Below are positions 943 through 20,074 of a stretch of 64,000 nt of DNA, in pieces. Under the pieces are notes generated by a model. It saw only the letters and a list, made by a program, of their open reading frames with translations, searched no databases and was not told the DNA's origin. This DNA comes from Actinomycetes bacterium (GTDB lineage Bacteria > Actinomycetota > Acidimicrobiia > Acidimicrobiales > RAAP-2): NCBI GenBank assembly GCA_021848365.1, contig JAJZUS010000001.1, positions 540,608 through 604,607 on the forward strand. The letters are read 5' to 3'. Made by a program: the position numbers and the translations under genes. Numbering within the stretch: the stretch's first letter is position 1; each line of letters starts with the position of its first letter.

Positions 943-1143
943 GTGCCGCAGGGAACCGTGAAGTGGTTCAACGACGAGAAGGGTTGGGGGTTCATCGCCG
1001 TCGAGGGGCAGCCGGACGTCTTCGTCCACTACTCCGAGATCCAGTCCGAGGGACGCCGCACCCTCGTCGAGGGACAGACCGTCAGCTTCGACATGGAGGC
1101 CGGCGAGCGCGGACCGCTCGCCAAGCGCGTCGTCCTCGGCTGA
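943..1143 (+). CDS. cspA: Cold-shock protein (CSD family)
   Basis: [15 protein letters not shown] (RNP1) and VFVHYS (RNP2); 66 aa; AAGGAGG RBS at 932-938. Confidence 0.97.
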
Positions 1144-1167
1144 CTTTCCGGGGGGTCCCCCCGCGGT

Positions 1168-1200
1168 TAGAGTGGTCCCCGTGGTTACCGGAGGGTAACC
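1168..1200 (+). promoter_or_regulatory. -10 box and palindromic operator upstream of the acyl-CoA dehydrogenase
   Basis: TAGAGT at 1168-1173; GGTTACC-N4-GGTAACC at 1183-1200. Confidence 0.55.
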
Positions 1201-1222
1201 CTAGCGAATGGCGGGGTGAGCC

Positions 1223-2437
1223 GTGGCGGACTTCTCGATGGCACTGAACGACGACCAGCGCACGCTGCGCGACTGGGTCCACGGATTCGCGGCCGACGTC
1301 ATGCGTCCGGCCGCGGCCGAGTGGGACGAGCGCGAAGAGACGCCCTGGCCGATCATCGAGGAGGCCGCGACGCTCGGCATCTACTCGCTCGACTTCCTGG
1401 CGAACGCCGTGCTCGACCCGACGGGGCTCTCGTTCCCGATCGTCCTCGAGGAGCTCGCCTGGGGCGACGCGGGGCTCTGCATGTCGATCATGGGCAGTTC
1501 GCTCGCCGTCGCCGGGATCATGGCGAACGGCACGCCCGAGCAGCAGGCCGAGTGGATGCCCCAGTGCTTCGGGACCCCGGGCAATCTCAAGCTCGCGGCC
1601 TTCGCCGTCTCCGAGCCCGACGCCGGGAGCGACGTCTCGAGCCTGCGGACCCGCGCCGTCTACGACCAGACGACCGATGAGTGGGTCCTCAACGGCGTGA
1701 AGACCTGGATCACCAACGGCGGGATCGCCGACCTGCACGTCGTCGTCGCCTCCGTCGACCCCGAGCTCGGCGCGCGGGGCCAGGCCTCCTTCGTCGTCCC
1801 CGAGGGGACCCCGGGGATCCGCATGGGTCAGAAGTTCAAGAAGATGGGCATCCGCGCGAGCCACACCGCCGAGGTCGTCCTCGAGGACTGCCGCGTCCCC
1901 GGACGATGCCTGCTCGGGGGCAAGGACCGCCTCGACGAGCGCCTCGCGCGGGTGCGCGAGGGCAAGAAGGCCTCCTCCCAGGCGGCCATGGCCACCTTCG
2001 AGTCGACCCGGCCCGGGGTCGGGGCCCAGGCCGTGGGCATCGCCCGCGCGGCCTTCGAGTACGCGCGCGACTACGCGAAGGAGCGCCGCCAGTTCGGCCG
2101 GGCCATCGTCGAGAACCAGGCCATCGCCTTCAAGCTCGCCGACATGAAGATGGCCGTCGACGCGGCGCGCCTGCTGGTGTGGCGGGCCTCGTGGATGGCC
2201 GCCACCCGCACCCCCTTCGAGAGCGGGGAGGGCTCGATGTCGAAGCTCTTCGCCGGGGAGGCGGCCGTCAAGGTCACCGAGGAGGCCATCCAGATCCTCG
2301 GCGGCTACGGCTACGTGCGGGAGTACCCGGTCGAGCGGATGCACCGCGACGCGAAGATCTACACGATCTTCGAGGGCACCTCGGAGATCCAGCGACTCAT
2401 CATCGCCCGCGCCGTGACGGGAGTCCACGTCCGCTGA
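1223..2437 (+). CDS. Acyl-CoA dehydrogenase
   Basis: [45 protein letters not shown] (catalytic Glu); 404 aa. Confidence 0.95.
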
Positions 2438-2475
2438 ACGTCCGGACGCGCCGGGGACCCAGCGGCTCCTCGGCA

Positions 2476-2497
2476 ATGTGCTACAATTGACGCACAT
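2476..2497 (+). promoter_or_regulatory. vapBC operator palindrome containing the -10 box
   Basis: ATGTGC-TACAATTGAC-GCACAT; TACAAT at 2482-2487; overlaps the antitoxin ATG at 2496. Confidence 0.65.
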
Positions 2498-2768
2498 GAA
2501 GACGATCGGCATTCGCGAGCTCCAGCAGAACGCCTCGGCGGCTCTGCGCCGCGTGGCCGCGGGCGAGTCGCTCGGCGTCACGGACCGTGGTCGTCTGGTG
2601 GCGGTCTTGAGTGCTCCGTCGATGGCGACGGGGGCGGCCGCGCTCGTCGCCGCGGGCCGGGTCCGGCCCGCGCGACGTCCCCCGACGTCGCTGCCCGAAC
2701 CCACCGTGGTCGCCGAGTCGACCCAGGCGGTGCTCGAGGAGTTGCGTCGCGAACGCGGTGAGGCGTGA
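2496..2768 (+). CDS. vapB: Phd/YefM-family antitoxin (VapB)
   Basis: MKTIGIRELQQNASAALRRVAAGESLGVTDRGRLVA fits the Phd fold; GTGA overlap with the PIN toxin; start moved to ATG 2496. Confidence 0.9.
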   Translation: MKTIGIRELQQNASAALRRVAAGESLGVTDRGRLVAVLSAPSMATGAAALVAAGRVRPARRPPTSLPEPTVVAESTQAVLEELRRERGEA

Positions 2769-3151
2769 TCTGGTACCTCGACACGTCGGCCTTCTTGAAG
2801 GTCGTCGTCGCCGAGGCGGAGTCGCCCGCCCTGCGACGGTGGTTCGCGCGCCAGGACGAGGTCTGGTCGTCCTCGCTCCTGCAGACCGAGGCGCTTCGCG
2901 CGGGCGCTCGGCTCGGTCTCGCGAGTGACGTGGTCGAGGAGGCCCTCGAGACGATCACGCTCGTCCTCCCGACGGCGTCGACCTTCTACGTGGCGGGACA
3001 GCTGGGACCGAGCACCCTGCGCTCGCTCGACGCGCTGCACCTGGCGACGGCGCTCGAGCTGGGGTCCGACCTCGCCGGCGTCGTGACGTACGACGAGCGA
3101 CTGGTGGAGGCCGCGAGCCTCGCGTCGGTCGCGGTGCTCGCGCCACGCTGA
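2765..3151 (+). CDS. vapC: VapC PIN-domain ribonuclease toxin
   Basis: YLDTSAFLK, EA, LRSLDALHLATA and TYDERL supply the acidic PIN residues; 128 aa. Confidence 0.93.
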   Translation: MIWYLDTSAFLKVVVAEAESPALRRWFARQDEVWSSSLLQTEALRAGARLGLASDVVEEALETITLVLPTASTFYVAGQLGPSTLRSLDALHLATALELGSDLAGVVTYDERLVEAASLASVAVLAPR

Positions 3152-3200
3152 CGCGACGACTCGAAGGCCGCGTCCCTCGTCGCTGACACTGACCAAGACC

Positions 3201-3464
3201 TTGACGGAATGGGGTGGGACCAGCGCCACCCAGTCGATCACGGTCTCGTGGTCTCGGGTCCCGGGGGCGACCGGGTACCGCTGCCGCCTGCTCGGGTACG
3301 TCGGCACCCCGGTCCCCTACGCCGAGCCGAGCCTGACCTCGCTCACGACGACGGCGACGCGCTGCGCCGTCGGGAGGCTCCCGCGCACCTTTCGCTACGC
3401 GGTCGCGGTGTCCGCGCTCTCGGTCCTCGGCGAGAGCCAGCCCGCCGTGGTCACGGAGCCCTGA
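3201..3464 (+). pseudogene. Isolated fibronectin type III-like domain, probably a C-terminal gene remnant
   Basis: SITVSWSRVPGATGYR and YAVAVSALSVLGES match the FN3 pattern; TTG start only, no RBS, no signal peptide. Confidence 0.45.
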
Positions 3465-3482
3465 GCCAGAAGACCCCGACCC

Positions 3483-4898
3483 TCAGCGACTGACGATGAG
3501 GATCGTCTCGAGGGAGGAATCGCTGCAGTAGGCGATGCGGCACGTCGTCGCGGCGGCGGCGATCGCGTCGAGGGCCTCGCGGGTCACGAGCTCGCCCGGG
3601 GCGAGGAGGGGGACCCCGGGGGGGTAGGGGCAGAACTGCTCGGCGCTGACCTCGCCGATCGCCTCGCGCAGGGGGACCCGGCGCCGCTCGCGCAGGAAGG
3701 CCTCGCGCGGGGTCATGGCGACCTGGGGCTCGACCCGCCAGATCGAGAGGGGCGAGGGACGGCGGGCCTCGCCCCGGTGGGCCTCGATGAGGTCGCCCAG
3801 GAGGTCGGCGAAGGCGACGATCCACTCTGGCTCGTCGGCGACCGTCGTGGTGAGGATCAGGGTGTCGTGGTCGGCCGACTCGGGGCCGTGGCCCATCCGC
3901 CAGAGCGCCTCGCCGACGGCGACGCCGTCGGCGCCGGTGCCCGGGAGGACGAGGGTCAACTTCGTCGGGTCGACGGGACACCCGGCCGTCTCGTCGTTCA
4001 CGACGACGAGTCCCGGCACGCGCGCGAGGCGCTGTCGGGCCGTGGCGACGGCCTCGATCACGACCCCGAGGCGACGCCCGGCGTCCTCCTCGAGGGCCGC
4101 GCGCGCGCCGTCGATCGAGGCCATCAGGGTTCCCGAGGGCGAGGTCGTCGAGGTGAGGTCGACCCAGCGATCGAGGGTCGAGCGGGGGATGATCCCGGTG
4201 CGCATGCTGACGACGGCCGTCTGGGTGTAGCCGAGGAGGGCCTTGTGGACGCTCGTCACCGAGAAGTCGGCTCCCTGGGCGATCGCCCCGCGACCGGGCA
4301 GGAAGTCGAGGTGGGCCCCCCAGGCCTGGTCGACGACGAGGGGCTCGCCGTGCTCGCGCGCGACGGCGGCGAGCGCGGGGACGTCGGAGATCGTGCCGAC
4401 GTAGGAGGGGGAGGTGACGAAGAAGCCGTTCACTCGCTCCGGGAGGTCGGCGAGGGAGCGGGGCGACATCCCGATCGGGATGTTGAGCTCGGGGTGGATC
4501 TCGGGGTAGACCCAGAGCGGTCGGGCGCCGATGAGGACGAGCCCGGCCTGGGTGCTGCGGTGCGAGGTGCGGTCGATGGCGATCGGGGTGTCCTCGTCGC
4601 CCACGGTCGCGAGGGCCGCGATGTTGCCCTGGGAGGAGCCCCCAACGAGGAATCGGCTGTGCTCGGCCCCGACGGCGCGGGCCCAGAGCGCCTCGGCCTG
4701 CCCGAGGTAGTCGTTCGAGTAGGCGTTGTCGTCGACGCCACCCTGGAGAGGGATGTCGTCACGCACCGTGTCGCCGACGAGCTCGTGGGCCCACCCGGGC
4801 GCGTCGTCGAGGTAGCGGAGCTTGTGCCCCGGTACCTGCATCGGGCGACGCCGCTCGGCGCGCGCTCGGCGCCAGGCGTCCAGCAGTGGCTTCTCCAT
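3483..4898 (-). CDS. PLP-dependent Orn/Lys/Arg decarboxylase family protein
   Basis: MQVPGHK, FLVGGSSQGN, DRTSHRS, VDQAWGAH, SVHK (PLP lysine), C-terminal CPYPPGVPLLAPGE; AGAAGGA RBS. Confidence 0.92.
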   Translation of the reverse strand: MEKPLLDAWRRARAERRRPMQVPGHKLRYLDDAPGWAHELVGDTVRDDIPLQGGVDDNAYSNDYLGQAEALWARAVGAEHSRFLVGGSSQGNIAALATVGDEDTPIAIDRTSHRSTQAGLVLIGARPLWVYPEIHPELNIPIGMSPRSLADLPERVNGFFVTSPSYVGTISDVPALAAVAREHGEPLVVDQAWGAHLDFLPGRGAIAQGADFSVTSVHKALLGYTQTAVVSMRTGIIPRSTLDRWVDLTSTTSPSGTLMASIDGARAALEEDAGRRLGVVIEAVATARQRLARVPGLVVVNDETAGCPVDPTKLTLVLPGTGADGVAVGEALWRMGHGPESADHDTLILTTTVADEPEWIVAFADLLGDLIEAHRGEARRPSPLSIWRVEPQVAMTPREAFLRERRRVPLREAIGEVSAEQFCPYPPGVPLLAPGELVTREALDAIAAAATTCRIAYCSDSSLETILIVSR

Positions 4899-4967
4899 GA
4901 TCCTTCTCTCGCTATCGGCTGGCTCGTTCGGGGCGTCCGTCTCGCGCGGCCCGCGGACGGTCTCGCC

Positions 4968-5852
4968 TCACTCCTCAGCGAGTCCCGCGGCCAGCTCGTC
5001 GCGAGACTGCTCGATGCGCTCCATTCGTCGGCGCGCCGACGACCCGAGCCGGGCGAAGAGTCCGGCGACGAGGAGGTCGGTGACGGCGATGACCGACGCC
5101 ATCGAGTCGAAGGAGCTGACCGACTCGACCGCGGCGGGCAGCACGACGTCCGCGACGGCCGAGATCGGGGACATCCACGGATCGGTGACGAGGATGATCG
5201 AGGCGCCCCGTTCGGCCGCCAGTCGGGCGAGGGCGATGACGTCGTCCTGGTAGCGGCGGACGTCGTAGACGACGCAGACCGTGCGCGGCCCGACGTCGGC
5301 GAGGAAGCCCGACTCGGGCTGCTGACTCCACGAGAGGAGTCGGGTGTCCGGGCGCAGGAGGCGCAGCTGGAGGTCGAGGTACTCGGCCCCGAGCCGGGTG
5401 AATCGCCCGCCGAAGGCGATCACGTGGTGTCGCGGGTTGGCGAGGAGCGTGACGGCCCGGTCGAGGTCGGTGGGGAGGATGGTCGTCATGGTCCGGCGCA
5501 GTCCGGCCCCGAGGATCGACCAGGCTCGCTCGCAGAGTTGGTCGGCCGGGGCGTCGGCGACGTCCAGGGTGAGCGGGGAGGCGCCCCGCACGGAGAGCTC
5601 GGCGCGTATGGCCTCCTGGAGCTCGCGGTAGCCGGGGTAGCCGAGTTGGACGGCGAAGCGCACGACCGTGGGGGCACTCACCCCGGCCCGGCGAGCCAGC
5701 TCGGCCGAGGGGTGCAGCCCGGCCATGGGGTAGTCGGCCATGAGGGCGCGCGCGATCTTGCGCTCCCCGGGGGTGAACAGGTCGGCCCGACTGCGGAGCC
5801 GCTCCATGACCGAGCGGACGTCGCCCTCGGTCGTCGCGTCGCTCGGAGCCAC
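4968..5852 (-). CDS. RpiR/MurR-family transcriptional regulator (HTH + SIS)
   Basis: FTPGERKIARAL..SAELARRAGVSAPTVVRFAVQLGYPGY HTH, followed by an SIS domain. GTG 5852 is 6 nt after TACGCT (5859-5864). Confidence 0.9.
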   Translation of the reverse strand: MAPSDATTEGDVRSVMERLRSRADLFTPGERKIARALMADYPMAGLHPSAELARRAGVSAPTVVRFAVQLGYPGYRELQEAIRAELSVRGASPLTLDVADAPADQLCERAWSILGAGLRRTMTTILPTDLDRAVTLLANPRHHVIAFGGRFTRLGAEYLDLQLRLLRPDTRLLSWSQQPESGFLADVGPRTVCVVYDVRRYQDDVIALARLAAERGASIILVTDPWMSPISAVADVVLPAAVESVSSFDSMASVIAVTDLLVAGLFARLGSSARRRMERIEQSRDELAAGLAEE

Positions 5853-5933
5853 GTCCGTAGCGTACCGATGGGCCCGCCGCTCGTCCGGCCGCTCCCGACG
5901 GACCGGCGCGGACCGGGCTCGCACGACGTCGTC

Positions 5934-6725
5934 CTAGAGCGCCGACACGGTCGTCGTGAGGTCGCTCCGTCGCACCCGCAGGATCGAGTCGGGCGGCAGG
6001 GTCTCCCACTCGCCGGGGAGACCCGAGTGGGCCGCGACGACGCCGCCGGGCCGCTCCGACCAACTGAGGTCGAAGTACCGGTCGAGGTGGGCCGGCGGGA
6101 TGTTCTCGGGCGCGCCGCAGGACTCCTCGAGATCGTCCGTCGGCATCGGCATCCCGGTGTGGGAGTGGACGACGCAGAGCTCGTCGTCGGTGAGGACGAT
6201 GGCGTTGAGACTGGCCACGGGGGCGAACGTGCGAATCGTCGCGACGGTGGCCCGCAAGGCGTCGGCGAGGTCGGGGTGGTGGGTCAGGGACTGGAGGAGG
6301 AGGAGGAAGTAGAGCTCGGAGTCGGTGTCACCGCGCCGCAGCGCCCGCTGCTCGACGTCGAGCAGCGGCTCGATCTCGTCGTGCTCGGCGACCGAGCCGT
6401 TGTGGGCGAAGGCGATCGGTCCGCGGGGGTGGGCGACGAAGGGATGGGTGTTCTCCTCGCGCACCGGCAGGCCGAGGGAGGCCCAGCGCAGGTGCACGAG
6501 GCCGGCGTGAGATCGATCACCGCGCAGCGCCGCGAGGTGGTCGTCATCGCGCGCCGCGCGAGGGGAGCGGTAGACGGCGACCTCGCCGGGCGAGTCCGAC
6601 ACCGCGTAGCCCCAGCCGTCACCGTGGAGTCGCGACAGGTCGACGAACTCGTCGAAGGCGGCGTCCCCGAGGACCCCGGTGGCGCCGGACGGCGTCGTGG
6701 ACGCGAAGCACATCAGCCGACACAT
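5934..6725 (-). CDS. Class II glutamine amidotransferase (Ntn hydrolase, YafJ/EgtC-like)
   Basis: N-terminal MCRL (Cys2 nucleophile), HGDGWG, HLRWAS, ENTHPF, FAHNG, GDTDSE; GGGAGG RBS. Confidence 0.9.
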   Translation of the reverse strand: MCRLMCFASTTPSGATGVLGDAAFDEFVDLSRLHGDGWGYAVSDSPGEVAVYRSPRAARDDDHLAALRGDRSHAGLVHLRWASLGLPVREENTHPFVAHPRGPIAFAHNGSVAEHDEIEPLLDVEQRALRRGDTDSELYFLLLLQSLTHHPDLADALRATVATIRTFAPVASLNAIVLTDDELCVVHSHTGMPMPTDDLEESCGAPENIPPAHLDRYFDLSWSERPGGVVAAHSGLPGEWETLPPDSILRVRRSDLTTTVSAL

Positions 6726-6746
6726 TTCCCGCCTCCCGGTTAGTTG

Positions 6747-6799
6747 TGTTTCGTTTCATGCGATGCTATCGTCCGCGACAATGAATTCTAACGTTCATT
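6747..6799. promoter_or_regulatory. Divergent promoter region with a candidate operator
   Basis: Locally AT-rich; AATGAA-N8-TTCATT at 6780-6799 enclosing TAACGT; an extra GTTTCAT half-site near 6753-6759. Confidence 0.5.
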
Positions 6800-6849
6800 T
6801 GACGCGATGGCTCTCCCGACCGGGAGACGAGCTCGTCGACTACACGCCC

Positions 6850-8190
6850 GTGGCCGACGAGGCCATGGTCAGCGCCCTCGAGGGGGAACTGCGCGGCCGG
6901 GGCGTACGGACCGTGCGGGGCACCTTCGTCGACTCCTCGGGGGTGCTGCGCGCGAAGCAGGTGCCCCTCTCGCGGCTCGGGGCCTTCAACCGCTCCGGAC
7001 TGGGCGCGTCGAACTCCTGGGCCGTCTTCGGCGCCGACGACCTACTCTGCATGACCCCGCGCTTCTCGGCCGTCGGCGACATGCGGCTGCGCGCCGACCT
7101 CGACACCGTGGTCGACCTCGGCGAGGGGGTGGCGTGGACGCCGCTCAGCCTCGTCGACCAGGACGGCGTCGCCCTCGACTACTGCGCCCGCACCGTCCTG
7201 CGGCGTCAGATCCGCGCGGCGAACGAGGTCGGGCTCTCCGTCGTCGCCGCGACCGAGGTCGAGTTCACCGTCTACGACGCCGAGCGCCGCCCCCTCGGGG
7301 GTGCCTCCTACGGGTGGACGCGACTCAGCGGCTACGAGCCCTTCGTCGACGCGCTGTCCCGCTCCCTCGAGAGCGCCGGGGTGCCGCTCGAGCAGTTGCA
7401 CGGAGAGTACGGCCCGGGCCAGTTCGAGCTCTCGGTGGCTCCGGCGAACCCCCTCGCCGCGGCCGACCTGAACGTGCTGGTGCGCGTCGTGATCTCGCGG
7501 GTCGCGCGCTCCTTCGGCTACGCCGTCTCCTTCTCGCCCAAGCCCTTCGCCGACGCCATCGGCAACGGGGCCCACTCCCACCTCTCCTTTCGCCGCGAGG
7601 GTCGTCCCCTCCTCTCGGGGGGCGACGGCCCCCACGGCCTCACCCCCGAGGGGGCGAGCATCGTCGCGGCCTACGTCCGCTACCTCCCCGAGATGGTCGG
7701 CGTCCTCGCGTCGTCGGCCCTCTCGAGCACGCGCCTGCAGCCCTCGACCTGGTCGGGGGCGTACGCGTGCTGGGGTCTCGAGAACCGCGAGGCCGCGGTG
7801 CGGCTCTGCGCCGCGACGCGGGGCAACCCCCACGGCGCCAACGTCGAGGTCAAGTGCGTCGACCCGGCGGCCAACGTCTACGCCGCCTACGCGGCGCTCG
7901 TCGGGGTCGCTCGTCGCGCGCTCGAGTTCCCGGAAGAACTCGGACCCGAGACGACCGTCGACCCGGCGGACCTCAGCCCGGCCGAGCGCGACGCGAGCGG
8001 CATCACCCTCGTGGGAGCCGATCACGCGGCGGTGCTCGACCGGTTCGAGTCCTCGAGCGCGATGCTCGAGGTCCTCGGTGAGGCCTTCGTCGAGACGACC
8101 CTCGCCGTGCGGCGTCACGAGGCCGACCTCGTCGCCGCCGAGGGCATCGCGGCCGTCGCCGAGCGCCTGACCTTCGCGTGGTCGGCCTAG
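6850..8190 (+). CDS. glnA3: GlnA3-type glutamine synthetase-like gamma-glutamyl-(poly)amine ligase
   Basis: GLGAS, EVEF, EQLHGEYGPGQFE, GNGAHSHLS, WGLENREAAVR, NVEVK..DPAAN and the AWSA terminus match M. tuberculosis GlnA3 as I recall it. Start uncertain (6781, 6850 or 6865). Confidence 0.85.
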   Translation: MADEAMVSALEGELRGRGVRTVRGTFVDSSGVLRAKQVPLSRLGAFNRSGLGASNSWAVFGADDLLCMTPRFSAVGDMRLRADLDTVVDLGEGVAWTPLSLVDQDGVALDYCARTVLRRQIRAANEVGLSVVAATEVEFTVYDAERRPLGGASYGWTRLSGYEPFVDALSRSLESAGVPLEQLHGEYGPGQFELSVAPANPLAAADLNVLVRVVISRVARSFGYAVSFSPKPFADAIGNGAHSHLSFRREGRPLLSGGDGPHGLTPEGASIVAAYVRYLPEMVGVLASSALSSTRLQPSTWSGAYACWGLENREAAVRLCAATRGNPHGANVEVKCVDPAANVYAAYAALVGVARRALEFPEELGPETTVDPADLSPAERDASGITLVGADHAAVLDRFESSSAMLEVLGEAFVETTLAVRRHEADLVAAEGIAAVAERLTFAWSA

Positions 8191-8238
8191 CCGGAGATTT
8201 CGTCGCAGTACCGAGAAACAACTAGGGGGGAAGGAAGC

Positions 8239-9744
8239 ATGTCGACAGATTCGGCACCACCGAGGGTGGGTAAGCGGAAGCTGAAGCTGTGGGGGGCGGT
8301 CGCCATCTCACTGGGCATCGTCGGGCCGACGCTGGCGATGGCGGGCAACGGACAGGGGACGGTCGCGGTCGTGGGCAAGTCGGTGCCGCTCGTCTTCGTC
8401 TTTGGCGCCATTGGCATCGCGCTCATCGGCCACAGCTTCATCCGCCTGACGCAGCGCTACTCGCACGCCGGCAGTTCCTACGCCCTCGTCGGGCTCACGA
8501 TCGGCAAGCGGGCGGGCTTCCTCGCCGGGTTCGCGGTGATGATGACCTACGTCTTCTTCGCCATCTGCACACTGGGCGCCGTGGCGAGCTTCCTCAACGC
8601 CTTCCTGGCGGCGGCCGACAGCGGAGCGGCGCACCCGCCGCACGTGCCTTGGGTCCTGGTCGCCCTGATCGCCGTCGTCGTCGGGCTCTTCTTCAATACT
8701 CGCGACATCCAGACCGTGGCGCGCGCGCTGCTCGCCATCGAGGGACTCGGCATCGTCTGCATGACGATCCTCACGATCGTCATCATCTCGAAGGGCGGCG
8801 CCCACTCGACCGGCGTCGACTGGAGCACCTTCTCGCTGAAGGGCAATAGCTTCTCGACGATCATGGGCGCCGTCGTGGCGGCCTTCCTCTCGTGGGCCGG
8901 GTTCGAGGGCTGTGCGGCGCTCGGGGAGGAGACCGACGACCCCAAGCGCAACATCCCGCGGGCCCTGGCCTGGGCCGTGGCGCTCACCGCGGTGCTCTTC
9001 GTGATGGTGATGTTCGCCCAGACCATCGGCTACGGCACCAACGCCGCGGGTCTGCACACCTTCGCCACCCAGGGCAACTCGCTGACGACCCTCGGAAAGA
9101 CCTACATCGGGACCTGGTTCTCCCTCGTCATCTCGTTCGCGGCGGTGATCTCGGCCTTCGCCTGCCACCTGGCCTCGGTGGCGACGGCCGGTCGACTCAT
9201 GTGGGTCTTCAGCCGTGACGGTCTCGGCCCGAAGGGCTGGTCGCGTCTCGACTCTCGCCACTCCCAGCCGGTCAACGCCATCTTCACCGTGGCCGCCGTG
9301 ACGGCCGTCCTGGCGATCCTCGGGGGCATCACCAAGCACCCGGTCGTCGGCACCGGCGACCCGGCGCTCGACTTCTACTTCTACTACGCCACCATCGGCG
9401 CGATGGTGCTGATGTTCGCCTACTTCATGATGGAGCTCGGCACGATCAAGCACCTGCTCGTCGAGCGTCGCGAGAAGGCGGGCGAGGTCGTCTTCCCGAT
9501 CATCGGGGCCCTCTTGATGCTGGCCGTCTTCTACTACAACGTGAAGGGCCAGACCCAGTGGACGGCGGCGCCCTTCATCGCCTTCATGATCCTCGGGGTG
9601 GGCCTGCTCATCACCCTCTTCCTGCCCGGACTCGCGGACAAGGTCGCGGCGGGGCTCTCCTCCGAGCCCGAGGAGGCCGGCCCGGTCGGCAAGGACCTCC
9701 TCGCCCCGGGCATCGAGGCCCACCTCCCGGCGGGGCAGGACTAG
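8239..9744 (+). CDS. APC-family amino acid/polyamine permease
   Basis: About 12 hydrophobic segments; HAGSSY, SWAGFEGCAALGEETDDPKRNIPRA; GGAAGGA RBS. Confidence 0.93.
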   Translation: MSTDSAPPRVGKRKLKLWGAVAISLGIVGPTLAMAGNGQGTVAVVGKSVPLVFVFGAIGIALIGHSFIRLTQRYSHAGSSYALVGLTIGKRAGFLAGFAVMMTYVFFAICTLGAVASFLNAFLAAADSGAAHPPHVPWVLVALIAVVVGLFFNTRDIQTVARALLAIEGLGIVCMTILTIVIISKGGAHSTGVDWSTFSLKGNSFSTIMGAVVAAFLSWAGFEGCAALGEETDDPKRNIPRALAWAVALTAVLFVMVMFAQTIGYGTNAAGLHTFATQGNSLTTLGKTYIGTWFSLVISFAAVISAFACHLASVATAGRLMWVFSRDGLGPKGWSRLDSRHSQPVNAIFTVAAVTAVLAILGGITKHPVVGTGDPALDFYFYYATIGAMVLMFAYFMMELGTIKHLLVERREKAGEVVFPIIGALLMLAVFYYNVKGQTQWTAAPFIAFMILGVGLLITLFLPGLADKVAAGLSSEPEEAGPVGKDLLAPGIEAHLPAGQD

Positions 9745-9747
9745 TCC

Positions 9748-11073
9748 GTGCAGCCCGACCTCTCGTCACTGCCGGCCGAGGCGGCCGACCTCTATCGACG
9801 CGACCTGAAGGCGGTCGCCGGGATCGAGAAGCTGCGCTTCTTCCCGCTGGCCGTCGTCTCCGGCGAGGGCTCCTGGCTCGTCGAGGCGGGTGGACGTCGC
9901 GTGCTTGACCTCACCTCGACCTGGACGGCCTCGGGTCTCGGCTACGGTCACCCCGCCGTCGTCGAGGCGCTCACCCGGGCGGTGCAGGCACCGCCCGGCT
10001 CGGGCGGGCTCTCGGCGGTCCACCCCGACTCGGTCGGCCTGGCCGAGGACCTGCTCGCCCTCACCCCGGGCGAGGGCGAGCGACGCGTCTACCTGGGCCA
10101 CGCCGGCTCCGACGCGTGCGACGTCGCGCTGCGCGCCGTGCGGCTCGCCACCGGCAAGCGACGGATCATCGCCTTCGAGCACTCCTACCACGGCGGCGTG
10201 GGCGTCGCCCTCGGCGCGTCGGGGGTGCACGTCGAGGCCGGCTCGGTCGCGGCCGACCCGGACGTCGTCTTCGTCCCCTACCCGAACCCCTACCGGGAGG
10301 ATGCGCTGACTGCCCTCGCCGCCACTTTCGCCGCGATCGACGAGGCGCTGGCGGGGGGCGACGTGGCGGCCCTCATCGTCGAGCCCTTCCTCGCCGACGG
10401 GGGCATGGTGGTGCCCCCCGAGGGCTTCCTGCGCGGCTGCGCCGAGCGGGCCCGCGCGGCCGGTGTGCCCCTCATCGTCGATGAGGTCAAGGTCGGCCTC
10501 GGTCGCTCGGGGATGCTGCACGCCTTCCAGATCGAGGGCATCGTCCCCGACGTGGTCTGCTTCGGCAAGGTCCTCGGCGGGGGCCTGCCCCTCTCGGCCT
10601 GCGTCGGTCCCGCGTGGATTCTCGATGGTCCCCCGGCGGCGGCCCTCTTGACGACGGCCGGCAACCCCATCTGCTCCGCCGTCGGACGGGCCGTCCTGCG
10701 CACGCTCGTCGACGACGACCTGCCCGGTCGAGCGCGCGCCGCGGGCGAGCGCCTGCGGGCCGGGCTCCGGGCGGCCGATCTGCCCCAGGTCGGCGACGTG
10801 CGCGGGCACGGGCTCTCGATCGGGTGCGAGCTGGTGGAGGACCGGGCGAGCAAGACCCCGGCGCGGACCCTCGCGGCGAAGGTCGTCTACCGGGCCTTCG
10901 AGCTCGGGGCGGCCGTCTTCTACGTCGGGGGCAACACCCTCGAGATCACGCCGCCGCTCATCATCACCGACGAGGAGGTCGACCACGGCGTCGAGATCCT
11001 CGTCACGGCGATCCGCGACGCCGCGGCCGGCCGGGTGTCCGACGCGCTCGTCGCGCCCTACGCGGGGTGGTGA
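9748..11073 (+). CDS. Class III PLP enzyme resembling alpha-amino-epsilon-caprolactam / amino acid amide racemase
   Basis: LYRRD..KLRFFPLA, GLGYGHP, EPFLADGG, DEVKVGLGRSG, FGKVLGGG, C-terminal YAGW. These match Achromobacter obae ACL racemase as recalled. Confidence 0.75.
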   Translation: MQPDLSSLPAEAADLYRRDLKAVAGIEKLRFFPLAVVSGEGSWLVEAGGRRVLDLTSTWTASGLGYGHPAVVEALTRAVQAPPGSGGLSAVHPDSVGLAEDLLALTPGEGERRVYLGHAGSDACDVALRAVRLATGKRRIIAFEHSYHGGVGVALGASGVHVEAGSVAADPDVVFVPYPNPYREDALTALAATFAAIDEALAGGDVAALIVEPFLADGGMVVPPEGFLRGCAERARAAGVPLIVDEVKVGLGRSGMLHAFQIEGIVPDVVCFGKVLGGGLPLSACVGPAWILDGPPAAALLTTAGNPICSAVGRAVLRTLVDDDLPGRARAAGERLRAGLRAADLPQVGDVRGHGLSIGCELVEDRASKTPARTLAAKVVYRAFELGAAVFYVGGNTLEITPPLIITDEEVDHGVEILVTAIRDAAAGRVSDALVAPYAGW

Positions 11074-12191
11074 GCGTGGGCCTCGCCGAGGAGATCGCCT
11101 CGATCCCCCTGCTCGATCACCACGTCCACGGCGCCCTCAAGGATCCGCTCGACCAGGCGGCGCTCGAGTCGACGATCACCGAGTCGGACCGACCACCGGC
11201 GCCCGGGGTCTCGAGCTTCGACTCGCCGGTCGGCTTCGCACTGCTGCGCTTCTGCGCGCCCCTGCTCGACCTCGATGGCGAGGTCAGCCGGGCGGGCTAC
11301 GTGGAGCGGCGCCTCGAGCTCGGGCCCGAGGAGGTCAACCGCCGCTTGCTGCGGGCGAGCGGAATCGCGACCTACCTCGTCGACACCGGCTTCAACTCCG
11401 ACGGCCTCCTCGACGTCGCCGAGATGGCGAGCGCGGGCGCGGCGGAGACCCACGAGGTGGTGCGGCTGGAGGCCATCGCCCAGCGCCTCCTCACGGAGGA
11501 GATCCCTTCGGCGGAGTTCGCCCACGCGCTCGCCGCTGAGCTCGAGCAGTCCCGCACGCGCGGCGTCGTCGGAACGAAGAGCGTGCTGGCCTACCGGGCC
11601 GGCTTCGACATCGATACGACCCGTCCCGACGACGCGGCACTGCGCGCGGCCCTCGATCGCCAGCGAGCCCGCACCACGCGAATCGACGACCCGGTCCTGC
11701 TCGCCGAGCTGCTCTGGGCGGGGATCGATCTCGGGCTGCCCCTGCAGATCCACACCGGATTCGGCGACACCGACCTGACGCTGCACCGCTCGAACCCGAG
11801 CCTGCTCACCCCGTTCCTGCGTGCGAGCGAAGCCTCGGGCACGCCCGTCGTCCTGCTCCACTGCTACCCGTATCACCGCGAGGCGGCCTACCTCGCCCAG
11901 ATGTTTCCCCACGTCTACTTCGACGTGGGGGAGGCCCTCAACTACGCCGGGGCCCAGAGCCGCCAGATCGTCGCCGAGTCCTTCGCCCTGGCGCCCTTCG
12001 CAAAGCAGCTCTTCTCGTCCGACGCCTGGGGGCCGGCCGAGCTCCACTACCTGGGTGCCCTCCTGTGGCGCCGGGCCATGACGCGCGTGCTCGGGGAGTG
12101 GGTCGACGACGGCGACTGGAGCGAGGCCCAGGCCCACCGGGTCGTCGCGATGGTGGCGAGCGAGAACGCTCGCACCGTCTACCGGATCTGA
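11070..12191 (+). CDS. Amidohydrolase_2 family protein (FluG N-terminal / Rv1879-like)
   Basis: DHHVHG, KSVLAYRAG, LQIHTGFGD, LLHCYPY, FSSDAWG; GTGA overlap with the upstream stop codon. Confidence 0.88.
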   Translation: MSVGLAEEIASIPLLDHHVHGALKDPLDQAALESTITESDRPPAPGVSSFDSPVGFALLRFCAPLLDLDGEVSRAGYVERRLELGPEEVNRRLLRASGIATYLVDTGFNSDGLLDVAEMASAGAAETHEVVRLEAIAQRLLTEEIPSAEFAHALAAELEQSRTRGVVGTKSVLAYRAGFDIDTTRPDDAALRAALDRQRARTTRIDDPVLLAELLWAGIDLGLPLQIHTGFGDTDLTLHRSNPSLLTPFLRASEASGTPVVLLHCYPYHREAAYLAQMFPHVYFDVGEALNYAGAQSRQIVAESFALAPFAKQLFSSDAWGPAELHYLGALLWRRAMTRVLGEWVDDGDWSEAQAHRVVAMVASENARTVYRI

Positions 12192-12228
12192 GCGGCGACA
12201 CGAACGTCGGTCCGCCTACCATGGACGG

Positions 12229-12726
12229 ATCGACTCGGTCATCGTCTTCGTCGCCAAGTACTTCCTCTACCTGAGCGTCGCGGCCGTCGGCGTCTACTGG
12301 CTGCGGGCCCGCCGCTCCGACAAGGTCACCCTCGCCTGGCACCTCATCCTCGGCGGGCTCATCGCCCTCGGCCTCGCGCGCCTCGGCGGCCACCTCTACT
12401 ACAACCCCCGACCCTTCGTGACGGGACACCTCACACCCCTCTTCCCCCACGCGCCCGATAACGGATTCCCCTCGGACCACGCCCTGCTCACGTCGTTCCT
12501 CGCCTTCTCGCTGTGGCGGTGGTCACGACCGTTCGCCGCGGTCCTCTTCGCGAACGCGATCCTGGTGGGCGGAGCGCGCGTCCTCGCCCACGTCCACCAC
12601 GTGATCGACATCCTCGGCTCCTACGGGTTCGCCCTGGTGGCCGTCCTCGTGATCGCCGGGATCGAGCGCTACCGCGCCCACGGGCTCAGTCCGCGGCGGC
12701 GAGGAGACGTCGGCTGGCGGAGCTGA
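12229..12726 (+). CDS. PAP2-family membrane phosphatase (BcrC-like undecaprenyl-diphosphatase); start codon non-canonical or lost
   Basis: RPF, FPSDH and RVLAHVHHVIDI motifs. The frame is open from ATC 12229 with no in-frame ATG/GTG/TTG before 12418. Confidence 0.75.
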   Translation: MDSVIVFVAKYFLYLSVAAVGVYWLRARRSDKVTLAWHLILGGLIALGLARLGGHLYYNPRPFVTGHLTPLFPHAPDNGFPSDHALLTSFLAFSLWRWSRPFAAVLFANAILVGGARVLAHVHHVIDILGSYGFALVAVLVIAGIERYRAHGLSPRRRGDVGWRS

Positions 12727-13573
12727 GCGTCGTCCCGGCCCGCCAGAGGGCCCGGATGGACCGGGTGAGCCGCAGTCCGCTGACCGGGACGACGACGAGG
12801 CGCCCGCCCGCGATCTCCCCCTCGACGGCCAGTCGGCTGACGACGGCCGGGCCGATCCCCCGGGCGACGGCCTCCTTCACCGCGGTCGTCGACGCCAGCT
12901 CGACGGCGTAGTGGGGGGCGAGGCCCCGCTCGGCGAGAGCCCCCTCCAGGACCTCGCGCGTCCCCGAGCCCGTCTCCCGTCCGACCAGGGCGCTCGCCGC
13001 GAGCCCCGACGCCGGCACCGGGCTGCGTCGTCGCGCCCAGGGATGTCCCGGGGCCACCACGACGACCAGCTCGTCGAGGTGGACGCCCCGCCCCTCGAGG
13101 CCCCGGGGGAGGTGGAGTCCCTCGACGAAGCCGATCTCCGCCTCGCCCGACTCGACGAGGGCCGCGACGCCCCGCGAGTTCGCCATGCGCAGGGAGACCG
13201 TCACCGGGGGAGTGGCGTCGTAGAGCGGGGCGATCCAGCCGGGCAGGAGGTACTCGGCGACGGTGAGGGAGGCGGCGAGTCGCAGGACGCCGCCGCGCTC
13301 CTCGCGACGCCGTCGCGCCACCGCCGCGACCTCGTCGAGGGCGAGCAGGGCCGCCCGGGCGCTCGGGACCAGGGCGAGTCCGTCATCGCTCAGGCGGGCC
13401 CCCCGCGTCGCGCGCTCGAGGAGCTCGAGGCCGAGGTGGGCCTCGAGCTCGCGCAGCCGGACGCTGGCGGCCGGCTGACTGAGACCGAGGCGCCGCGCGG
13501 CCGACGTGATCGACCCACTCTCCTCCAGGGCGACGAGGAGGGTCAGGGTCGTCGGGTCGATGGGGTCAGTCAT
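12686..13573 (-). CDS. LysR-family regulator (CysL/YeiE-like)
   Basis: GSITSAARRLGLSQPAASVRLRELE HTH; LRLAASLTVAEYLLP; RETGSGTR. Confidence 0.93.
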   Translation of the reverse strand: MTDPIDPTTLTLLVALEESGSITSAARRLGLSQPAASVRLRELEAHLGLELLERATRGARLSDDGLALVPSARAALLALDEVAAVARRRREERGGVLRLAASLTVAEYLLPGWIAPLYDATPPVTVSLRMANSRGVAALVESGEAEIGFVEGLHLPRGLEGRGVHLDELVVVVAPGHPWARRRSPVPASGLAASALVGRETGSGTREVLEGALAERGLAPHYAVELASTTAVKEAVARGIGPAVVSRLAVEGEIAGGRLVVVPVSGLRLTRSIRALWRAGTTLSSASRRLLAAAD

Positions 13574-13588
13574 AAGCAGAGCCTATGA
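13570..13588. promoter_or_regulatory. LysR-type binding palindrome
   Basis: TCATA-N9-TATGA overlapping the lysR start codon and its -10 box (13580-13585). Confidence 0.65.
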
Positions 13589-13657
13589 CTTTGTACGGCA
13601 GGAGGGGTAAGAAAGGGCCTGCGACAACGGAAGACTGGATCCAACGAAGGAGGATCC

Positions 13658-14683
13658 ATGACGATCACCGATACCCCGCCGGCAACGGCCACGCGACGCC
13701 TCGCCCCCGGCCTCGCGCTGGCCTCGGCGCTCGGGCTCGCCGCCTGGCTGATCGCCCGGATCGTTCCCCTCGTCGGGGCGCCGGTCGTCGCGATCGTCCT
13801 CGGCGTCCTCGTCGCCCTGGTGCGTCCGGTGGGGCCGGGGCTGCGCCCGGGGGTCCACCTCGCGGCGAAGCGGGTCCTCCAGCTCTCGATCGTCGTCCTC
13901 GGCCTCGAGCTCTCCTGGCACGAGGTCGTCGTCACCGGGCTTTCCTCGTTGCCGGTCCTCCTCGGCACCCTCGTCGTCGCCCTCGGCGGCGCCTGGCTCG
14001 TCGGGCGCCTCGTCGGCATCGAGGGCGACCTGCGGACCCTCATCGGGGTCGGCACCGCCATCTGCGGGGCGAGCGCCATCGCGGCGACCGACGCGGTGAT
14101 CGACGCCCACGAGCGCGACGTCGCCTACGCAGTCGCGACGATCTTCACCTTCAACGTGGCGGCCGTCCTCACGTTCCCCTCGGTCGGGCACCTCCTGCAC
14201 CTCTCGCCCCACGCCTTCGGGGTGTGGGCCGGGACGGCGGTCAACGACGTGTCCTCGGTCGTCGCCGCCTCGAGCGCCTACGGGCACAACGCGAGCGCCA
14301 CCGCAGTCGTCGTGAAGCTCGCCCGCAGCCTCGCCATCGTGCCGATCGCCCTCGGCCTCTCGCTGCTGCGCACCAGCAAGGTGGCCCACGCCGAGGGACG
14401 GAGCCGCGTCGCGGTCGCCCGTCGCGCCTTCCCCTGGTTCATCCTCTGGTTCCTCGCCGCGGTCGCGGTCGACTCCCTCGGCCTCGTCCCGCGCACCATC
14501 ATCCCCGGCCTCGGTCAGTTGGCCCAGCTGCTCATCGCCATCGCGCTGGCGGGAGTGGGGCTCTCGGTTCGCCCGCGCGAGATCCGCTCGGCCGGCTGGC
14601 GGCCCCTCGCCCTCGGGGCGATCCTCTGGGTCCTCGTCGGCGCGTCCAGCCTCGCGATCGCCCACGTCTTCCCGACTCACTAG
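13658..14683 (+). CDS. YeiH-family membrane protein (putative sulfate exporter family)
   Basis: IGVGTAICGASAIAAT, GVWAGTAVNDVSSVVAA, VKLAR; divergent from the LysR gene; AAGGAGG RBS. Confidence 0.92.
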   Translation: MTITDTPPATATRRLAPGLALASALGLAAWLIARIVPLVGAPVVAIVLGVLVALVRPVGPGLRPGVHLAAKRVLQLSIVVLGLELSWHEVVVTGLSSLPVLLGTLVVALGGAWLVGRLVGIEGDLRTLIGVGTAICGASAIAATDAVIDAHERDVAYAVATIFTFNVAAVLTFPSVGHLLHLSPHAFGVWAGTAVNDVSSVVAASSAYGHNASATAVVVKLARSLAIVPIALGLSLLRTSKVAHAEGRSRVAVARRAFPWFILWFLAAVAVDSLGLVPRTIIPGLGQLAQLLIAIALAGVGLSVRPREIRSAGWRPLALGAILWVLVGASSLAIAHVFPTH

Positions 14684-14693
14684 GCCCCGACCC

Positions 14694-14717
14694 CGCCGCG
14701 CCCGGCCGGGCGCGGCG
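14694..14717 (+). terminator. GC-rich perfect hairpin after yeiH
   Basis: CGCCGCGCCCGG|CCGGGCGCGGCG, a 24-bp perfect palindrome; no U-tract. Confidence 0.5.
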
Positions 14718-14775
14718 AGCGGTCGCGGGACCGACGCCGTTGCGCGACTCGGTCGCCGGGAACTAGGAATGCCGG

Positions 14776-15303
14776 GTGCCCGACGCCCCCCGCACCCTGC
14801 TCACCCTCTGCACCGGCAACGTCGCGCGATCGGTGCTGCTCGCCGGCATGCTGGAGGCCCTCGGGGAGGAGGAGGGCCTCGCCTGGTCGGTACGCAGCGC
14901 CGGGACCCACGCGGTCGAGGGCGCGGCGATCAGCGCCCGCACCCGTGACGCGCTGGCCTCCCTCGCGGAGCCGGGGCTCGGTCCGATCGTCGGGCACCGC
15001 AGTCACCAGCTGAGCGCCGACGACCTCGCCTGGGCCGAGCTCACCCTCTGCGTCGAGGCGAGTCAGGTGACCCTCGTCGAGGGACTCCGTCCCGGTGCGC
15101 GGGCCGTCACGATCGGCCAGTTCGTGCGCGAGGCCGAGCTCGAGGGCTCCTGGCCGGGCCGCGTCGACGCCGTCGTCGCGCGCGGTGCGGATCCCCGCTA
15201 CGACGTCGTCGACCCGGCCGGGGGCGACCAGGCCCTCTACGACGCCGTCGCCCGCGAGCTCTGGGAGCTGGCCCAGGCCCTCGTCACCCTGTTCGGCGAG
15301 TAG
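14776..15303 (+). CDS. Low-molecular-weight protein-tyrosine phosphatase family protein
   Basis: P-loop CTGNVARS, SAGT, VVDP acid loop. Confidence 0.85.
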   Translation: MPDAPRTLLTLCTGNVARSVLLAGMLEALGEEEGLAWSVRSAGTHAVEGAAISARTRDALASLAEPGLGPIVGHRSHQLSADDLAWAELTLCVEASQVTLVEGLRPGARAVTIGQFVREAELEGSWPGRVDAVVARGADPRYDVVDPAGGDQALYDAVARELWELAQALVTLFGE

Positions 15304-15918: not shown

Positions 15919-15927
15919 GGGCCCAGC

Positions 15928-18603
<2,676 letters not shown>

Positions 18604-18607
<4 letters not shown>

Positions 18608-19982: not shown

Positions 19983-20074
19983 GCTACGTCTGGGCCGGGT
20001 ACGCCGTCGGCTTCGGGGGGCTCGCCCTCTACGCCCTCGGCCTCTGGTGGAGAGGACGGCGTGAGCGTCACTGA
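19979..20074 (+). CDS. ccmD: Heme exporter protein CcmD
   Basis: 31 aa, MSYVWAGYAVGFGGLALYALGLWWRGRRERH; single TM with basic tail; positioned between ccmC and ccmE. Confidence 0.75.
   Translation: MSYVWAGYAVGFGGLALYALGLWWRGRRERH

Follow-up and report, generated by a model that had tools for sequence, protein, structure and literature searches.

A divergent seven-gene cluster around a predicted aminocaprolactam/amino-acid-amide racemase in an Acidimicrobiales genome and its place in a candidate γ-glutamylation module

Gene Content and Organization of the Locus

The 64,000-nucleotide stretch of contig JAJZUS010000001.1 analysed here (hereafter, the window; Acidimicrobiales assembly GCA_021848365.1) contains at 3483-12191 a cluster of seven genes, which encode a pyridoxal phosphate (PLP)-dependent homologue of α-amino-ε-caprolactam (ACL) racemases together with a glutamine synthetase (GS)-like ligase, an amidohydrolase, an N-terminal nucleophile (Ntn) hydrolase, a permease, a decarboxylase, and an RpiR-family regulator (Table 1). 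The seven open reading frames (ORFs) and their Pfam domains agree with the coordinates and family assignments of an earlier reading of the same DNA that was made from the letters alone (the sequence-only reading). All of its gene-family calls proved correct against Pfam, as did its description of two divergent arms and of the GTGA overlap between the racemase and amidohydrolase genes, which we read in the sequence at 11070-11073. The intergenic gaps measure 3 nt between the permease and racemase genes and 9 nt between the Ntn hydrolase and regulator genes, and these short distances fit two divergent operons. Also as that reading had it, the cluster is accompanied by no aldehyde dehydrogenase (ALDH) or amine oxidase gene within 10 kb. 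The GC content of the window is 72-75%. The racemase homologue matches proteins of Acidimicrobiaceae/Ferrimicrobium-like metagenome-assembled genomes (MAGs; 97% protein identity in locus L001), and searches of sequencing runs place the window DNA mostly in mine-drainage metagenomes.

Table 1. Genes of the cluster and their shared control region, with positions in the window.
Feature	Position	Strand	Domain or sequence evidence
Orn/Lys/Arg-family PLP decarboxylase (DC), short form, 471 aa	3483-4898	-	Pfam OKR_DC_1 (3e-32) and OKR_DC_1_C
RpiR/MurR-family regulator	4968-5924	-	Pfam HTH_6 and SIS
Stand-alone class-II (Ntn) glutamine amidotransferase-like hydrolase (GAT2)	5934-6725	-	Pfam GATase_4/GATase_6; starts Met-Cys
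Divergent control region between both arms	6726-6849	.	Locally AT-rich; blocks kept in close relatives
GS-like γ-glutamyl:amine ligase (GS/GGL)	6850-8190 (alternative start 6781)	+	Pfam Gln-synt_C (3e-61)
APC-superfamily permease	8239-9744	+	Pfam AA_permease_2/AA_permease
ACL/amino-acid-amide racemase homologue (RAC)	9748-11073	+	Pfam Aminotran_3 (2.5e-77)
FluG-N-terminal/SCO6961-type binuclear-metal amidohydrolase (AH2)	11070-12191	+	Pfam Amidohydro_2

The Racemase Homologue

The PLP enzyme RAC belongs, by its sequence, to the clade of ACL and amino-acid-amide racemases (EC 5.1.1.15, class-III aminotransferase fold), and the corresponding activity is predicted for it. This identity, already proposed in the sequence-only reading, is upheld by PDB matches to racemases at 1e-114 to 1e-119 versus 2e-66 for the next family: the best structures are 5M46 (3e-119), 6GIO, titled 'amino acid amide racemase' (7e-115), and 2ZUK, titled 'ACL racemase' (7e-114), followed by archaeal broad-specificity racemases (2e-66) and γ-aminobutyrate (GABA) transaminases (~1e-58). 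RAC is 49% identical to 5M46, the Rhizobium freirei enzyme, which its structural paper reportedly describes as an ACL racemase, the PDB title reading only 'Aminotransferase class-III'. All signature residues (W49, Y137, D210, K241, and K267) are retained; among the orthologous loci that cover them, D210, K241, and K267 are invariant (116/116) and Y137 is kept in 115. In the numbering of the Achromobacter obae enzyme, Lys267 presumably forms the Schiff base and Tyr137 acts as the second base, with Asp210 and Lys241 binding the substrate. Typical class-III aminotransferases have other residues at positions 210 and 241; in the R. freirei enzyme these two were changed to Ala for the structures 5M4B and 5M4D. 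Assignment of RAC as a plain GABA transaminase was rejected on account of the signature residues. The substrates of characterised racemases of the clade include α-amino lactams, amides, and esters as well as a thiolactone, and none of them has a free carboxylate (PMC7431475; PMC11391342).

The Ligase and Amidohydrolase Pair

The GS-like ligase keeps all residues of the metal, ATP, and glutamate motifs, and its closest solved structure is PA5508 of Pseudomonas aeruginosa (4HPP; 34% identity), an enzyme reported to favour bulky amines (PMC6478659). The residue equivalent to R359 in the ExR motif (GS residue 335, 7852-7854) is Lys in 18/18 type-A ligases and Arg in 54/55 ligases of the PA5508 type, a pattern that marks the exchange as a predicted clade-specific active-site substitution. 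Two specific labels were rejected by score, namely PuuA (218 bits against a cut-off of 650 for the γ-glutamylputrescine synthetase equivalog NF045547) and true glutamine synthetase of type GSI (128 bits against 429 for the GlnA equivalog TIGR00653). The name glnA3 given to this gene in the sequence-only reading can stand only as a tentative label. The ligase is 34-38% identical to the GS of Streptomyces GS-AH2 pairs; the corresponding ligases of Pseudonocardia and Amycolatopsis are 48-51% identical to that of the window.

The sole PDB match of AH2 is 2QPX (LSEI_0440; 2e-41), with which it aligns at all seven catalytic residues, comprising the HxH motif, the carbamylated Lys, Tyr, two His residues, and Asp. 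The roles of these metal-binding and catalytic residues in 2QPX have been described, and the same residues are listed for the N-terminal half of FluG (PMC6478659). The right arm encodes both AH2 and the ligase, with two genes between them, and by homology they constitute a putative split FluG pair of the SCO6961-SCO6962 type, which the sequence-only reading had overlooked. The counterparts of SCO6961 and SCO6962 in Mycobacterium tuberculosis are presumably Rv1879 and Rv1878.

Ntn Hydrolase, Decarboxylase, and Permease

The translation of GAT2 begins with a Met-Cys nucleophile and contains the R, HNG, and TDSE motifs of the glutamine site. GAT2 is a remote relative of EgtC and of 3MDN; its identification as EgtC was rejected, with 49 bits against the cut-off of 218.65 for TIGR03442 and egt genes absent nearby; what it has in common with EgtC is limited to the Ntn fold of class II and the nucleophilic Cys. 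In other lineages the slot of GAT2 is taken by an FGase-family protein (PF05013) or by Peptidase_M20. Enzymes of the FGase, M20, and EgtC-like types act on N-acyl amino acids bearing a free carboxylate.

The decarboxylase has the PLP-lysine motif SxHK in the form SVHK. Because it is distant from characterised enzymes (best PDB E-value 6e-23), its specificity is not assignable, and Lys, Orn, or Arg as substrate is a family-level expectation. The gene occurs in three placements: that of the window, shared with Nocardioides aquiterrae; last in the right operon, as seen in Mycobacterium yunnanensis; and directly divergent from the ligase gene, as seen in MAGs from peat ('palsa'). Its distribution among the loci described below marks it as an accessory member of the module.

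The permease reaches no NCBIfam equivalog. In Actinobacteria the APC-racemase pair is the tightest linkage of all, and Alphaproteobacteria replace the APC permease with ABC importers of the HAAT amino-acid/amide family, which depend on a substrate-binding protein (SBP) and whose binding proteins have only generic HAAT amino-acid/amide relatives in PDB.

Control Region and the RpiR Regulator

In the public annotation of the contig the ligase gene starts at ATG 6781 (469 aa) rather than at GTG 6850, and the choice of start sets the length of the intergenic region at 55 or 124 nt, respectively. The ATG lies inside an AT-rich, operator-like block, CAATGAA(A/T)TC(A/T)AACGTTCA, that is common to close relatives, and the ~20 codons following it are not conserved; because the DNA is conserved and the codons are not, we kept GTG 6850 as the more likely start. 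The blocks CGATGCTATCGTCC and AAATCAAACGTTCA are retained in the relatives L001-L004 and L030, and the control region also contains the direct repeat TTCGTTTCATGCGATG/TTCATTTGACGCGATG.

The RpiR gene travels with the module in Actinobacteria, Alphaproteobacteria, and Pseudomonas, where the proteins are 34-43% identical to that of the window. The best NCBIfam match of the window protein is a MurR/RpiR-family model, with a score far below the cut-off, and its initial ~39 residues may represent an over-extended start. It is plausible that RpiR governs both divergent arms. A universal RpiR operator was not found, in that no 14-mer is common to all type-A intergenic regions; the best k-mer there (36 total mismatches versus 44-49 in shuffled sequences) reflects within-clade conservation only. 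A scan of 3300-12700 returned no σ70 consensus promoter and no intrinsic terminator, which is uninformative in an actinobacterium with 72% GC. As a separate observation, a box of the form TGAAAC(A/G)T(T/A)(C/T)(A/G)TGACA, similar to TGAAACATTCATGACA, precedes the ligase gene in loci L021, L028, L034, L036, and L015 from Mycobacterium, Nocardioides, and Jatrophihabitans. This TGAAACATTCATGACA-like box is a candidate RpiR operator, to which the window offers only a loose match (AACGTTCATTTGACG, 6792-6806).

Conservation of the Cluster and the Wider Module

Synteny in relatives, which the sequence-only reading had named beforehand as a check, was found across Actinomycetota. Of the 31 loci retrieved by similarity to the PLP enzyme, those from Acidimicrobiia, Mycobacterium, Jatrophihabitans, and further Actinomycetota include examples of the core, in which the GAT2 gene diverges from GS-APC-RAC-AH2 and is accompanied by RpiR. 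The same seven genes have an identical layout in the isolate N. aquiterrae; another isolate, M. yunnanensis, also has all seven, its decarboxylase gene coming last on the right, where it overlaps the stop codon of AH2, and three palsa Acidimicrobiaceae MAGs encode Peptidase_M20 in place of GAT2. With all seven genes found again in actinobacterial orders distant from one another, their arrangement can hardly be due to chance.

The gene content around the racemase was surveyed at 113 loci selected by racemase similarity alone, in which genes within 8 kb were counted. A transporter is present in 82% of these loci, an amidase (AH2 or isochorismatase-like) in 68%, a GS-like ligase in 64%, and a deacylase (GAT2 or FGase) in 64%, with the full triad of ligase, amidase, and deacylase in 52% and RpiR likewise in 52%. 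Decarboxylase and ALDH genes occur in 8% and 5%, respectively. De novo clustering of the flanking ORFs added only ABC transporter parts, Peptidase_M20, and sporadic SDR, DAO, and ALDH genes.

A second scan, seeded with characterised racemases, gave 80 loci, mostly alphaproteobacterial. Among the alphaproteobacterial loci is that of R. freirei PRF 81 (L082), which encodes a protein 100% identical to 5M46 and has the order RpiR, isochorismatase-like hydrolase, GS-like ligase (3e-136 to PA5508), FGase (PF05013), and racemase, with a divergent ABC importer of the Liv/HAAT type. Mixed forms, in which GS, AH2, FGase, and the racemase stand together, are found in L083, L111, and L117. Of 80 Pseudomonas loci retrieved with PA5508, 78 have the arrangement RpiR-isochorismatase-PA5508-FGase-APC, and neither racemase nor decarboxylase occurs in any of the 80; no oxidase, ALDH, racemase, or decarboxylase gene lies between the module genes of the 78, one of which has an ALDH gene nearby. 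The 80 loci retrieved with AH2 are mostly plain GS-AH2 pairs of the glnA3-SCO6961 type in Streptomyces, Pseudonocardia, and Amycolatopsis, with a GS-like gene adjoining AH2 in at least 62 of the 80. A few intermediates were seen (GS-APC-AH2, and GS-AH2-APC with GAT2), and among the AH2-seeded loci AH2 is combined with a close racemase orthologue only in the window clade and in L204.

Different loci use AH2 or an isochorismatase as amidase and GAT2, FGase, or M20 as deacylase, each of these two slots having been occupied several times by hydrolases unrelated to one another; the ligase and RpiR stay homologous. From this comparative evidence we conclude that the conserved core consists of ligase, amidase, deacylase, transporter, and RpiR, that the racemase and decarboxylase are add-ons, and that the window cluster is an actinobacterial variant of a larger, widespread module.

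Several loci contain additional genes. In Celeribacter and Rhodobium (L037 1-4824, L031, and L007) the racemase cluster is found with HyuA/HyuB proteins of the ATP-dependent hydantoinase/oxoprolinase/lactamase family, an ALDH, and an SBP_bac_8-type importer, which hints at lactam or hydantoin chemistry in this lineage. A second, divergent isochorismatase-like paralogue (36-42% identity) is located directly upstream of the racemase gene (about 9160-9400) in L057, L060, L063, L068, L076, L095, and L102, besides the copy adjoining FGase, which suggests two amide hydrolysis steps in those alphaproteobacteria. Genes for DAO-family FAD oxidoreductases with a PuuB-like fold lie beside or a few genes away from the clusters in L009 (11681-12988), L093, L111, and L034 (1011-2150), and they could supply an oxidative step in these lineages.

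Comparison With Known Systems

The nearest described operons share different parts of the cluster. All five slots of P. aeruginosa PA5506-PA5510 (RpiR, GS-like ligase, amidase, deacylase, and permease; PA5508 is also named PauA7) are filled in the window, with identities of 36-39% for RpiR, 34% for the ligase, and merely 23-26% for the permease; the Pseudomonas operon, however, has an isochorismatase-like amidase and an FGase, non-homologous to AH2 and GAT2, in their places, and lacks both racemase and decarboxylase. PA5506-09 are co-expressed, and PA5508 and PA5510 are under Crc control. At the R. freirei PRF 81 locus and about 45 other alphaproteobacterial loci, RpiR, a GS-like ligase, an amidase, a deacylase, and an importer surround a racemase with the same signature residues as RAC; they differ from the window in having isochorismatase and FGase for AH2 and GAT2 and the Liv/HAAT ABC importer for the APC permease, and in having no decarboxylase. 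Neither the match to the PA5508 operon nor the R. freirei racemase cluster had been noticed in the sequence-only reading; of its overall interpretation, the gene families, the racemase, and the synteny are supported, and the reaction order and the role of the decarboxylase are not.

A GS-like ligase is co-operonic with an Amidohydro_2 protein in the glnA3-SCO6961-SCO6960 operon of Streptomyces coelicolor (PMC5403932), and in Streptomyces GS-AH2 pairs AH2 is 48-52% and GS, as noted above, 34-38% identical to the window proteins; the S. coelicolor operon differs in being without racemase, permease, Ntn hydrolase, RpiR, and decarboxylase. Polyamines are glutamylated by the S. coelicolor GlnA3 and also induce its operon (PMC5403932); M. 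tuberculosis GlnA3 is likewise described as polyamine-glutamylating in the title of a paper devoted to it. The same two domains, with shared catalytic residues, are fused in FluG of Aspergillus nidulans and in plant NodGS, whereas in the window they are separate proteins, and the role of FluG is developmental. LSEI_0440 (2QPX) and PA5508 functionally substitute for the two halves of FluG (PMC6478659), and these two proteins are the best solved relatives of the window AH2 and GS.

In the Puu pathway of Escherichia coli and the ethanolamine pathway of S. coelicolor and Chromohalobacter salexigens, an amine is γ-glutamylated, the masked intermediate is modified, and the glutamate is removed, with a dedicated transporter and regulator; the window has a counterpart of each, with ligase and γ-glutamyl hydrolase genes clustered beside those for a transporter and a regulator. 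These canonical γ-glutamylation clusters (puu, ethanolamine) are described together with oxidising enzymes (PMC9397018), whereas the modifying enzyme of the window is a hydrolase rather than an oxidase or dehydrogenase with ALDH, and a racemase is added. Relative to Puu, the γ-glutamyl hydrolase is of the class-II Ntn type versus class-I PuuD, and the regulator is RpiR versus PuuR. Industrially, an ACL racemase combined with L-lysine-lactamase, or with a stereoselective amidase in the 'amidase process', turns a D/L aminolactam or amide fully into one amino acid (PMC7431475). There the enzyme pair comes from different organisms and acts without γ-glutamylation, whereas the window couples a racemase and a hydrolase gene by the GTGA overlap.

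Proposed Route and Alternative Explanations

Established for the cluster are the identity of each gene, the presence of the catalytic residues, the arrangement in operons, and synteny across several phyla; beyond this we infer a substrate class, a reaction order, a role for RpiR, and a substrate for the decarboxylase. The cluster would be the version found in Actinobacteria of a widespread module for catabolism or salvage, in which an α-amino carboxamide or α-amino lactam, once imported, is processed via a γ-glutamyl-masked intermediate, a reading to which we give a probability of roughly 40%. The racemase family suggests this substrate class, with amino-acid amides and the lactams of lysine and ornithine as candidates. 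The APC permease would import the amide or lactam, and RAC would interconvert its D and L forms so that both enter one stereospecific route. The GS-like ligase would then use ATP to couple the γ-carboxyl group of glutamate to the free α-amino group of the substrate, AH2 would cut the amide or lactam of this γ-glutamyl intermediate to give a γ-glutamyl amino acid, and GAT2 would strip the glutamate to release the free amino acid. Where present, the decarboxylase would turn this probably basic amino acid into an amine, and RpiR, acting at the intergenic region that the divergent operons have in common, would regulate both.

The Pseudomonas core has no oxidase or ALDH gene between its members, and ALDH lies near just 5% of racemase loci, which leaves the amidase as the sole consistent candidate for a modifying step between ligation and deglutamylation; since the amidase is also the only enzyme consistently found beside ligase and deacylase, the simplest self-contained scheme is hydrolysis of the masked intermediate. 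The AH2-GS fusion in FluG (PMC6478659) argues for coupled steps, the SBP-dependent importers of the sister clusters and the Crc control of PA5508 and PA5510 favour a catabolic direction, and a precedent for the last step is provided by the ethanolamine pathway (SCO1611-1615), in which an FGase-family (PF05013) protein is the assigned amidohydrolase for γ-glutamylglycine, a substrate with a free carboxylate (PMC9397018). The scheme also fits the bulky-amine preference reported for PA5508 (PMC6478659) and the action of FGase, M20, and EgtC-like enzymes on carboxylate-bearing N-acyl amino acids. Several points weigh against this route. Activity on such substrates is a prediction for every enzyme of the module, and searches of sequencing runs for expression returned DNA metagenomes only and no RNA. 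The ATP cost of hydrolysing an amide in this way has no obvious rationale, although one may speculate about an unfavourable lactam opening or about detoxification. The best-studied AH2-linked ligase, S. coelicolor GlnA3, acts on polyamines and belongs to a polyamine-induced operon (PMC5403932), most close relatives of AH2 stand in plain GS-AH2 pairs without a racemase, and the authors of the FluG study proposed that the amidohydrolase acts before the ligase (PMC6478659). The decarboxylase of the operon equally fits a diamine as the ligase substrate, and the DAO-type oxidase genes near L009, L093, and L111 hint at a Puu-like oxidation in some lineages.

The order proposed in the sequence-only reading places the amidohydrolase and decarboxylase before the ligase: after racemisation of an imported D/L aminolactam or amide, Lys or Orn would arise as AH2 opens the free L-form, decarboxylation would give cadaverine or putrescine, and a GlnA3-like ligase would glutamylate the diamine. 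In the form considered here, the Ntn hydrolase would act later on a γ-glutamyl ω-amino acid formed by an unlinked oxidation, or the γ-glutamyl amine would be the end product. It draws on the polyamine-glutamylating activity of S. coelicolor GlnA3, whose operon also includes an AH2 gene (PMC5403932), and, going by title, of M. tuberculosis GlnA3, on the grouping of the window GS with AH2-linked actinobacterial ligases, on the linkage of the decarboxylase in three independent arrangements, on the DAO or ALDH genes of a few loci, and on the parallel with the industrial racemase and L-lysine-lactamase route to lysine (PMC7431475). Yet because nothing in this order modifies the intermediate between ligase and hydrolase, the two become a futile pair unless an oxidase and ALDH come from elsewhere, and none lies within 10 kb of the cluster, ALDH being confined to 5% of racemase loci. 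The decarboxylase, in turn, is found at just 8% of racemase loci and at 0/80 Pseudomonas loci, where the core exists without decarboxylase or racemase; a chain from lactam through Lys and diamine to γ-Glu-diamine therefore cannot be the general logic of the module. The ligase also falls below the cut-off for γ-glutamylputrescine synthetase, and we regard this order as unlikely. A plain detoxification of polyamines or monoamines of the GlnA3 or Puu type, in which the PLP enzyme would be an aminotransferase and the two hydrolases redundant γ-glutamyl amidases, would accord with the class-III fold, with database labels of such proteins as GABA aminotransferases, with the GlnA3 literature, and with the resemblance of GS, permease, γ-glutamyl hydrolase, and regulator to the PuuA/P/D/R layout. 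This seems improbable in the face of D210 and K241, which mark the racemase clade and are kept in all 116 covering orthologues, of the gap of 50 orders in E-value to GABA aminotransferases, and of the missing ALDH within 10 kb to take the aldehyde product; the maintenance of two non-homologous hydrolase slots side by side across phyla argues against redundancy.

Two further explanations change the direction or the substrate of the pathway. If the module made a γ-glutamylated metabolite for storage or export, it would resemble the function proposed for the fused AH2-GS protein FluG, which acts by way of a γ-glutamylated intermediate to control development in the fungus (PMC6478659), and the lack of downstream catabolic genes, pointed out in the sequence-only reading, would be accounted for; the SBP-dependent importers of the sister clusters, the dedicated deglutamylating hydrolase, the Crc catabolite control of the Pseudomonas operon, and the absence of other biosynthetic genes nearby speak the other way, and we find such a role most improbable. 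Hardly better placed is the salvage of peptidoglycan fragments, in which RAC would invert the centre of D-α-amino-acid amides from amidated stem peptides (γ-linked D-isoglutamine, amidated diaminopimelate), AH2 would remove the amide, the Ntn hydrolase would cut the now L-γ-glutamyl bond, and a MurR-like RpiR would sense cell-wall turnover. D-isoglutamine and amidated diaminopimelate occur in nature as D-α-amino carboxamides, stem peptides contain γ-glutamyl bonds of their own, and MurR regulates the recycling of N-acetylmuramic acid. The window regulator is of the RpiR/MurR family, with a MurR/RpiR model as its best NCBIfam match though far below the cut-off, and the decarboxylase family works on diamino acids. 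This scheme is pure inference, has no use for the ATP-dependent ligase, although no enzyme of the module is better conserved, and finds no cell-wall recycling genes nearby; we hold it to be very unlikely.

Returning to hydrolysis of the γ-glutamyl-masked amide or lactam, the route could reach well beyond the window. It might represent a widespread and so far unrecognised strategy in Actinobacteria, Alphaproteobacteria, and Pseudomonas, and might be what ACL racemases and PA5508, and by extension fusions of the FluG/NodGS type, do in nature. The substrates would be α-amino lactams (those of ornithine or lysine) or D/L amino-acid amides, with peptidoglycan-derived D-amides possibly among them. 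At this breadth we consider the proposal doubtful.

Relation to Published Work and Significance

The sequence-only reading had flagged the gene combination as possibly undescribed, and we likewise found no published description in the open literature, nor a functional description of the module, of PA5506-PA5510, or of a natural role for ACL racemase, although Iyer et al. 2009 may note some of the neighbourhoods. Compared with known γ-glutamylation catabolic pathways, the new features would be the hydrolytic modifying step and the recruitment of a racemase. If the proposed order is true, γ-glutamylation logic extends from oxidative to hydrolytic modification of a masked intermediate.

The module links three orphan items, namely ACL racemase, PA5508, and the FluG-type proteins. 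ACL racemase has been used industrially for decades to produce lysine and chiral amino acids; its embedding in the module offers a physiological context, and the enzyme would gain a natural role if the route holds. PA5508, whose structure is solved and which has no pathway, falls in the same module as the bacterial counterparts of both FluG/NodGS halves. The module is present in the culturable hosts P. aeruginosa, R. freirei, N. aquiterrae, and M. yunnanensis.

Neighbouring Genes

Two long ORFs near the cluster were rejected as genes and attributed to high GC content: one of 988 aa on the + strand (3777-6743), antisense to the whole left arm, and one of 741 aa on the - strand (1082-3307), antisense to an acyl-CoA dehydrogenase gene (1238-2437, +). 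Just upstream of the decarboxylase gene lies a VapBC-type toxin-antitoxin pair (2496-3151, +), in which the gene for a PhdYeFM-like antitoxin with a weak Pfam match overlaps that of a PIN-domain toxin by 4 nt, followed by an 87-aa ORF without a Pfam match (3201-3464). On the other side, the genes at 12418-21000 seem unrelated to the cluster; they encode a PAP2 phosphatase, a LysR regulator, a YeiH-like membrane protein, a low-molecular-weight phosphatase, a TetR regulator, a glycosyltransferase, and an epimerase, and then, within the same interval, a cytochrome c maturation system I block (CcmABC-E-F).

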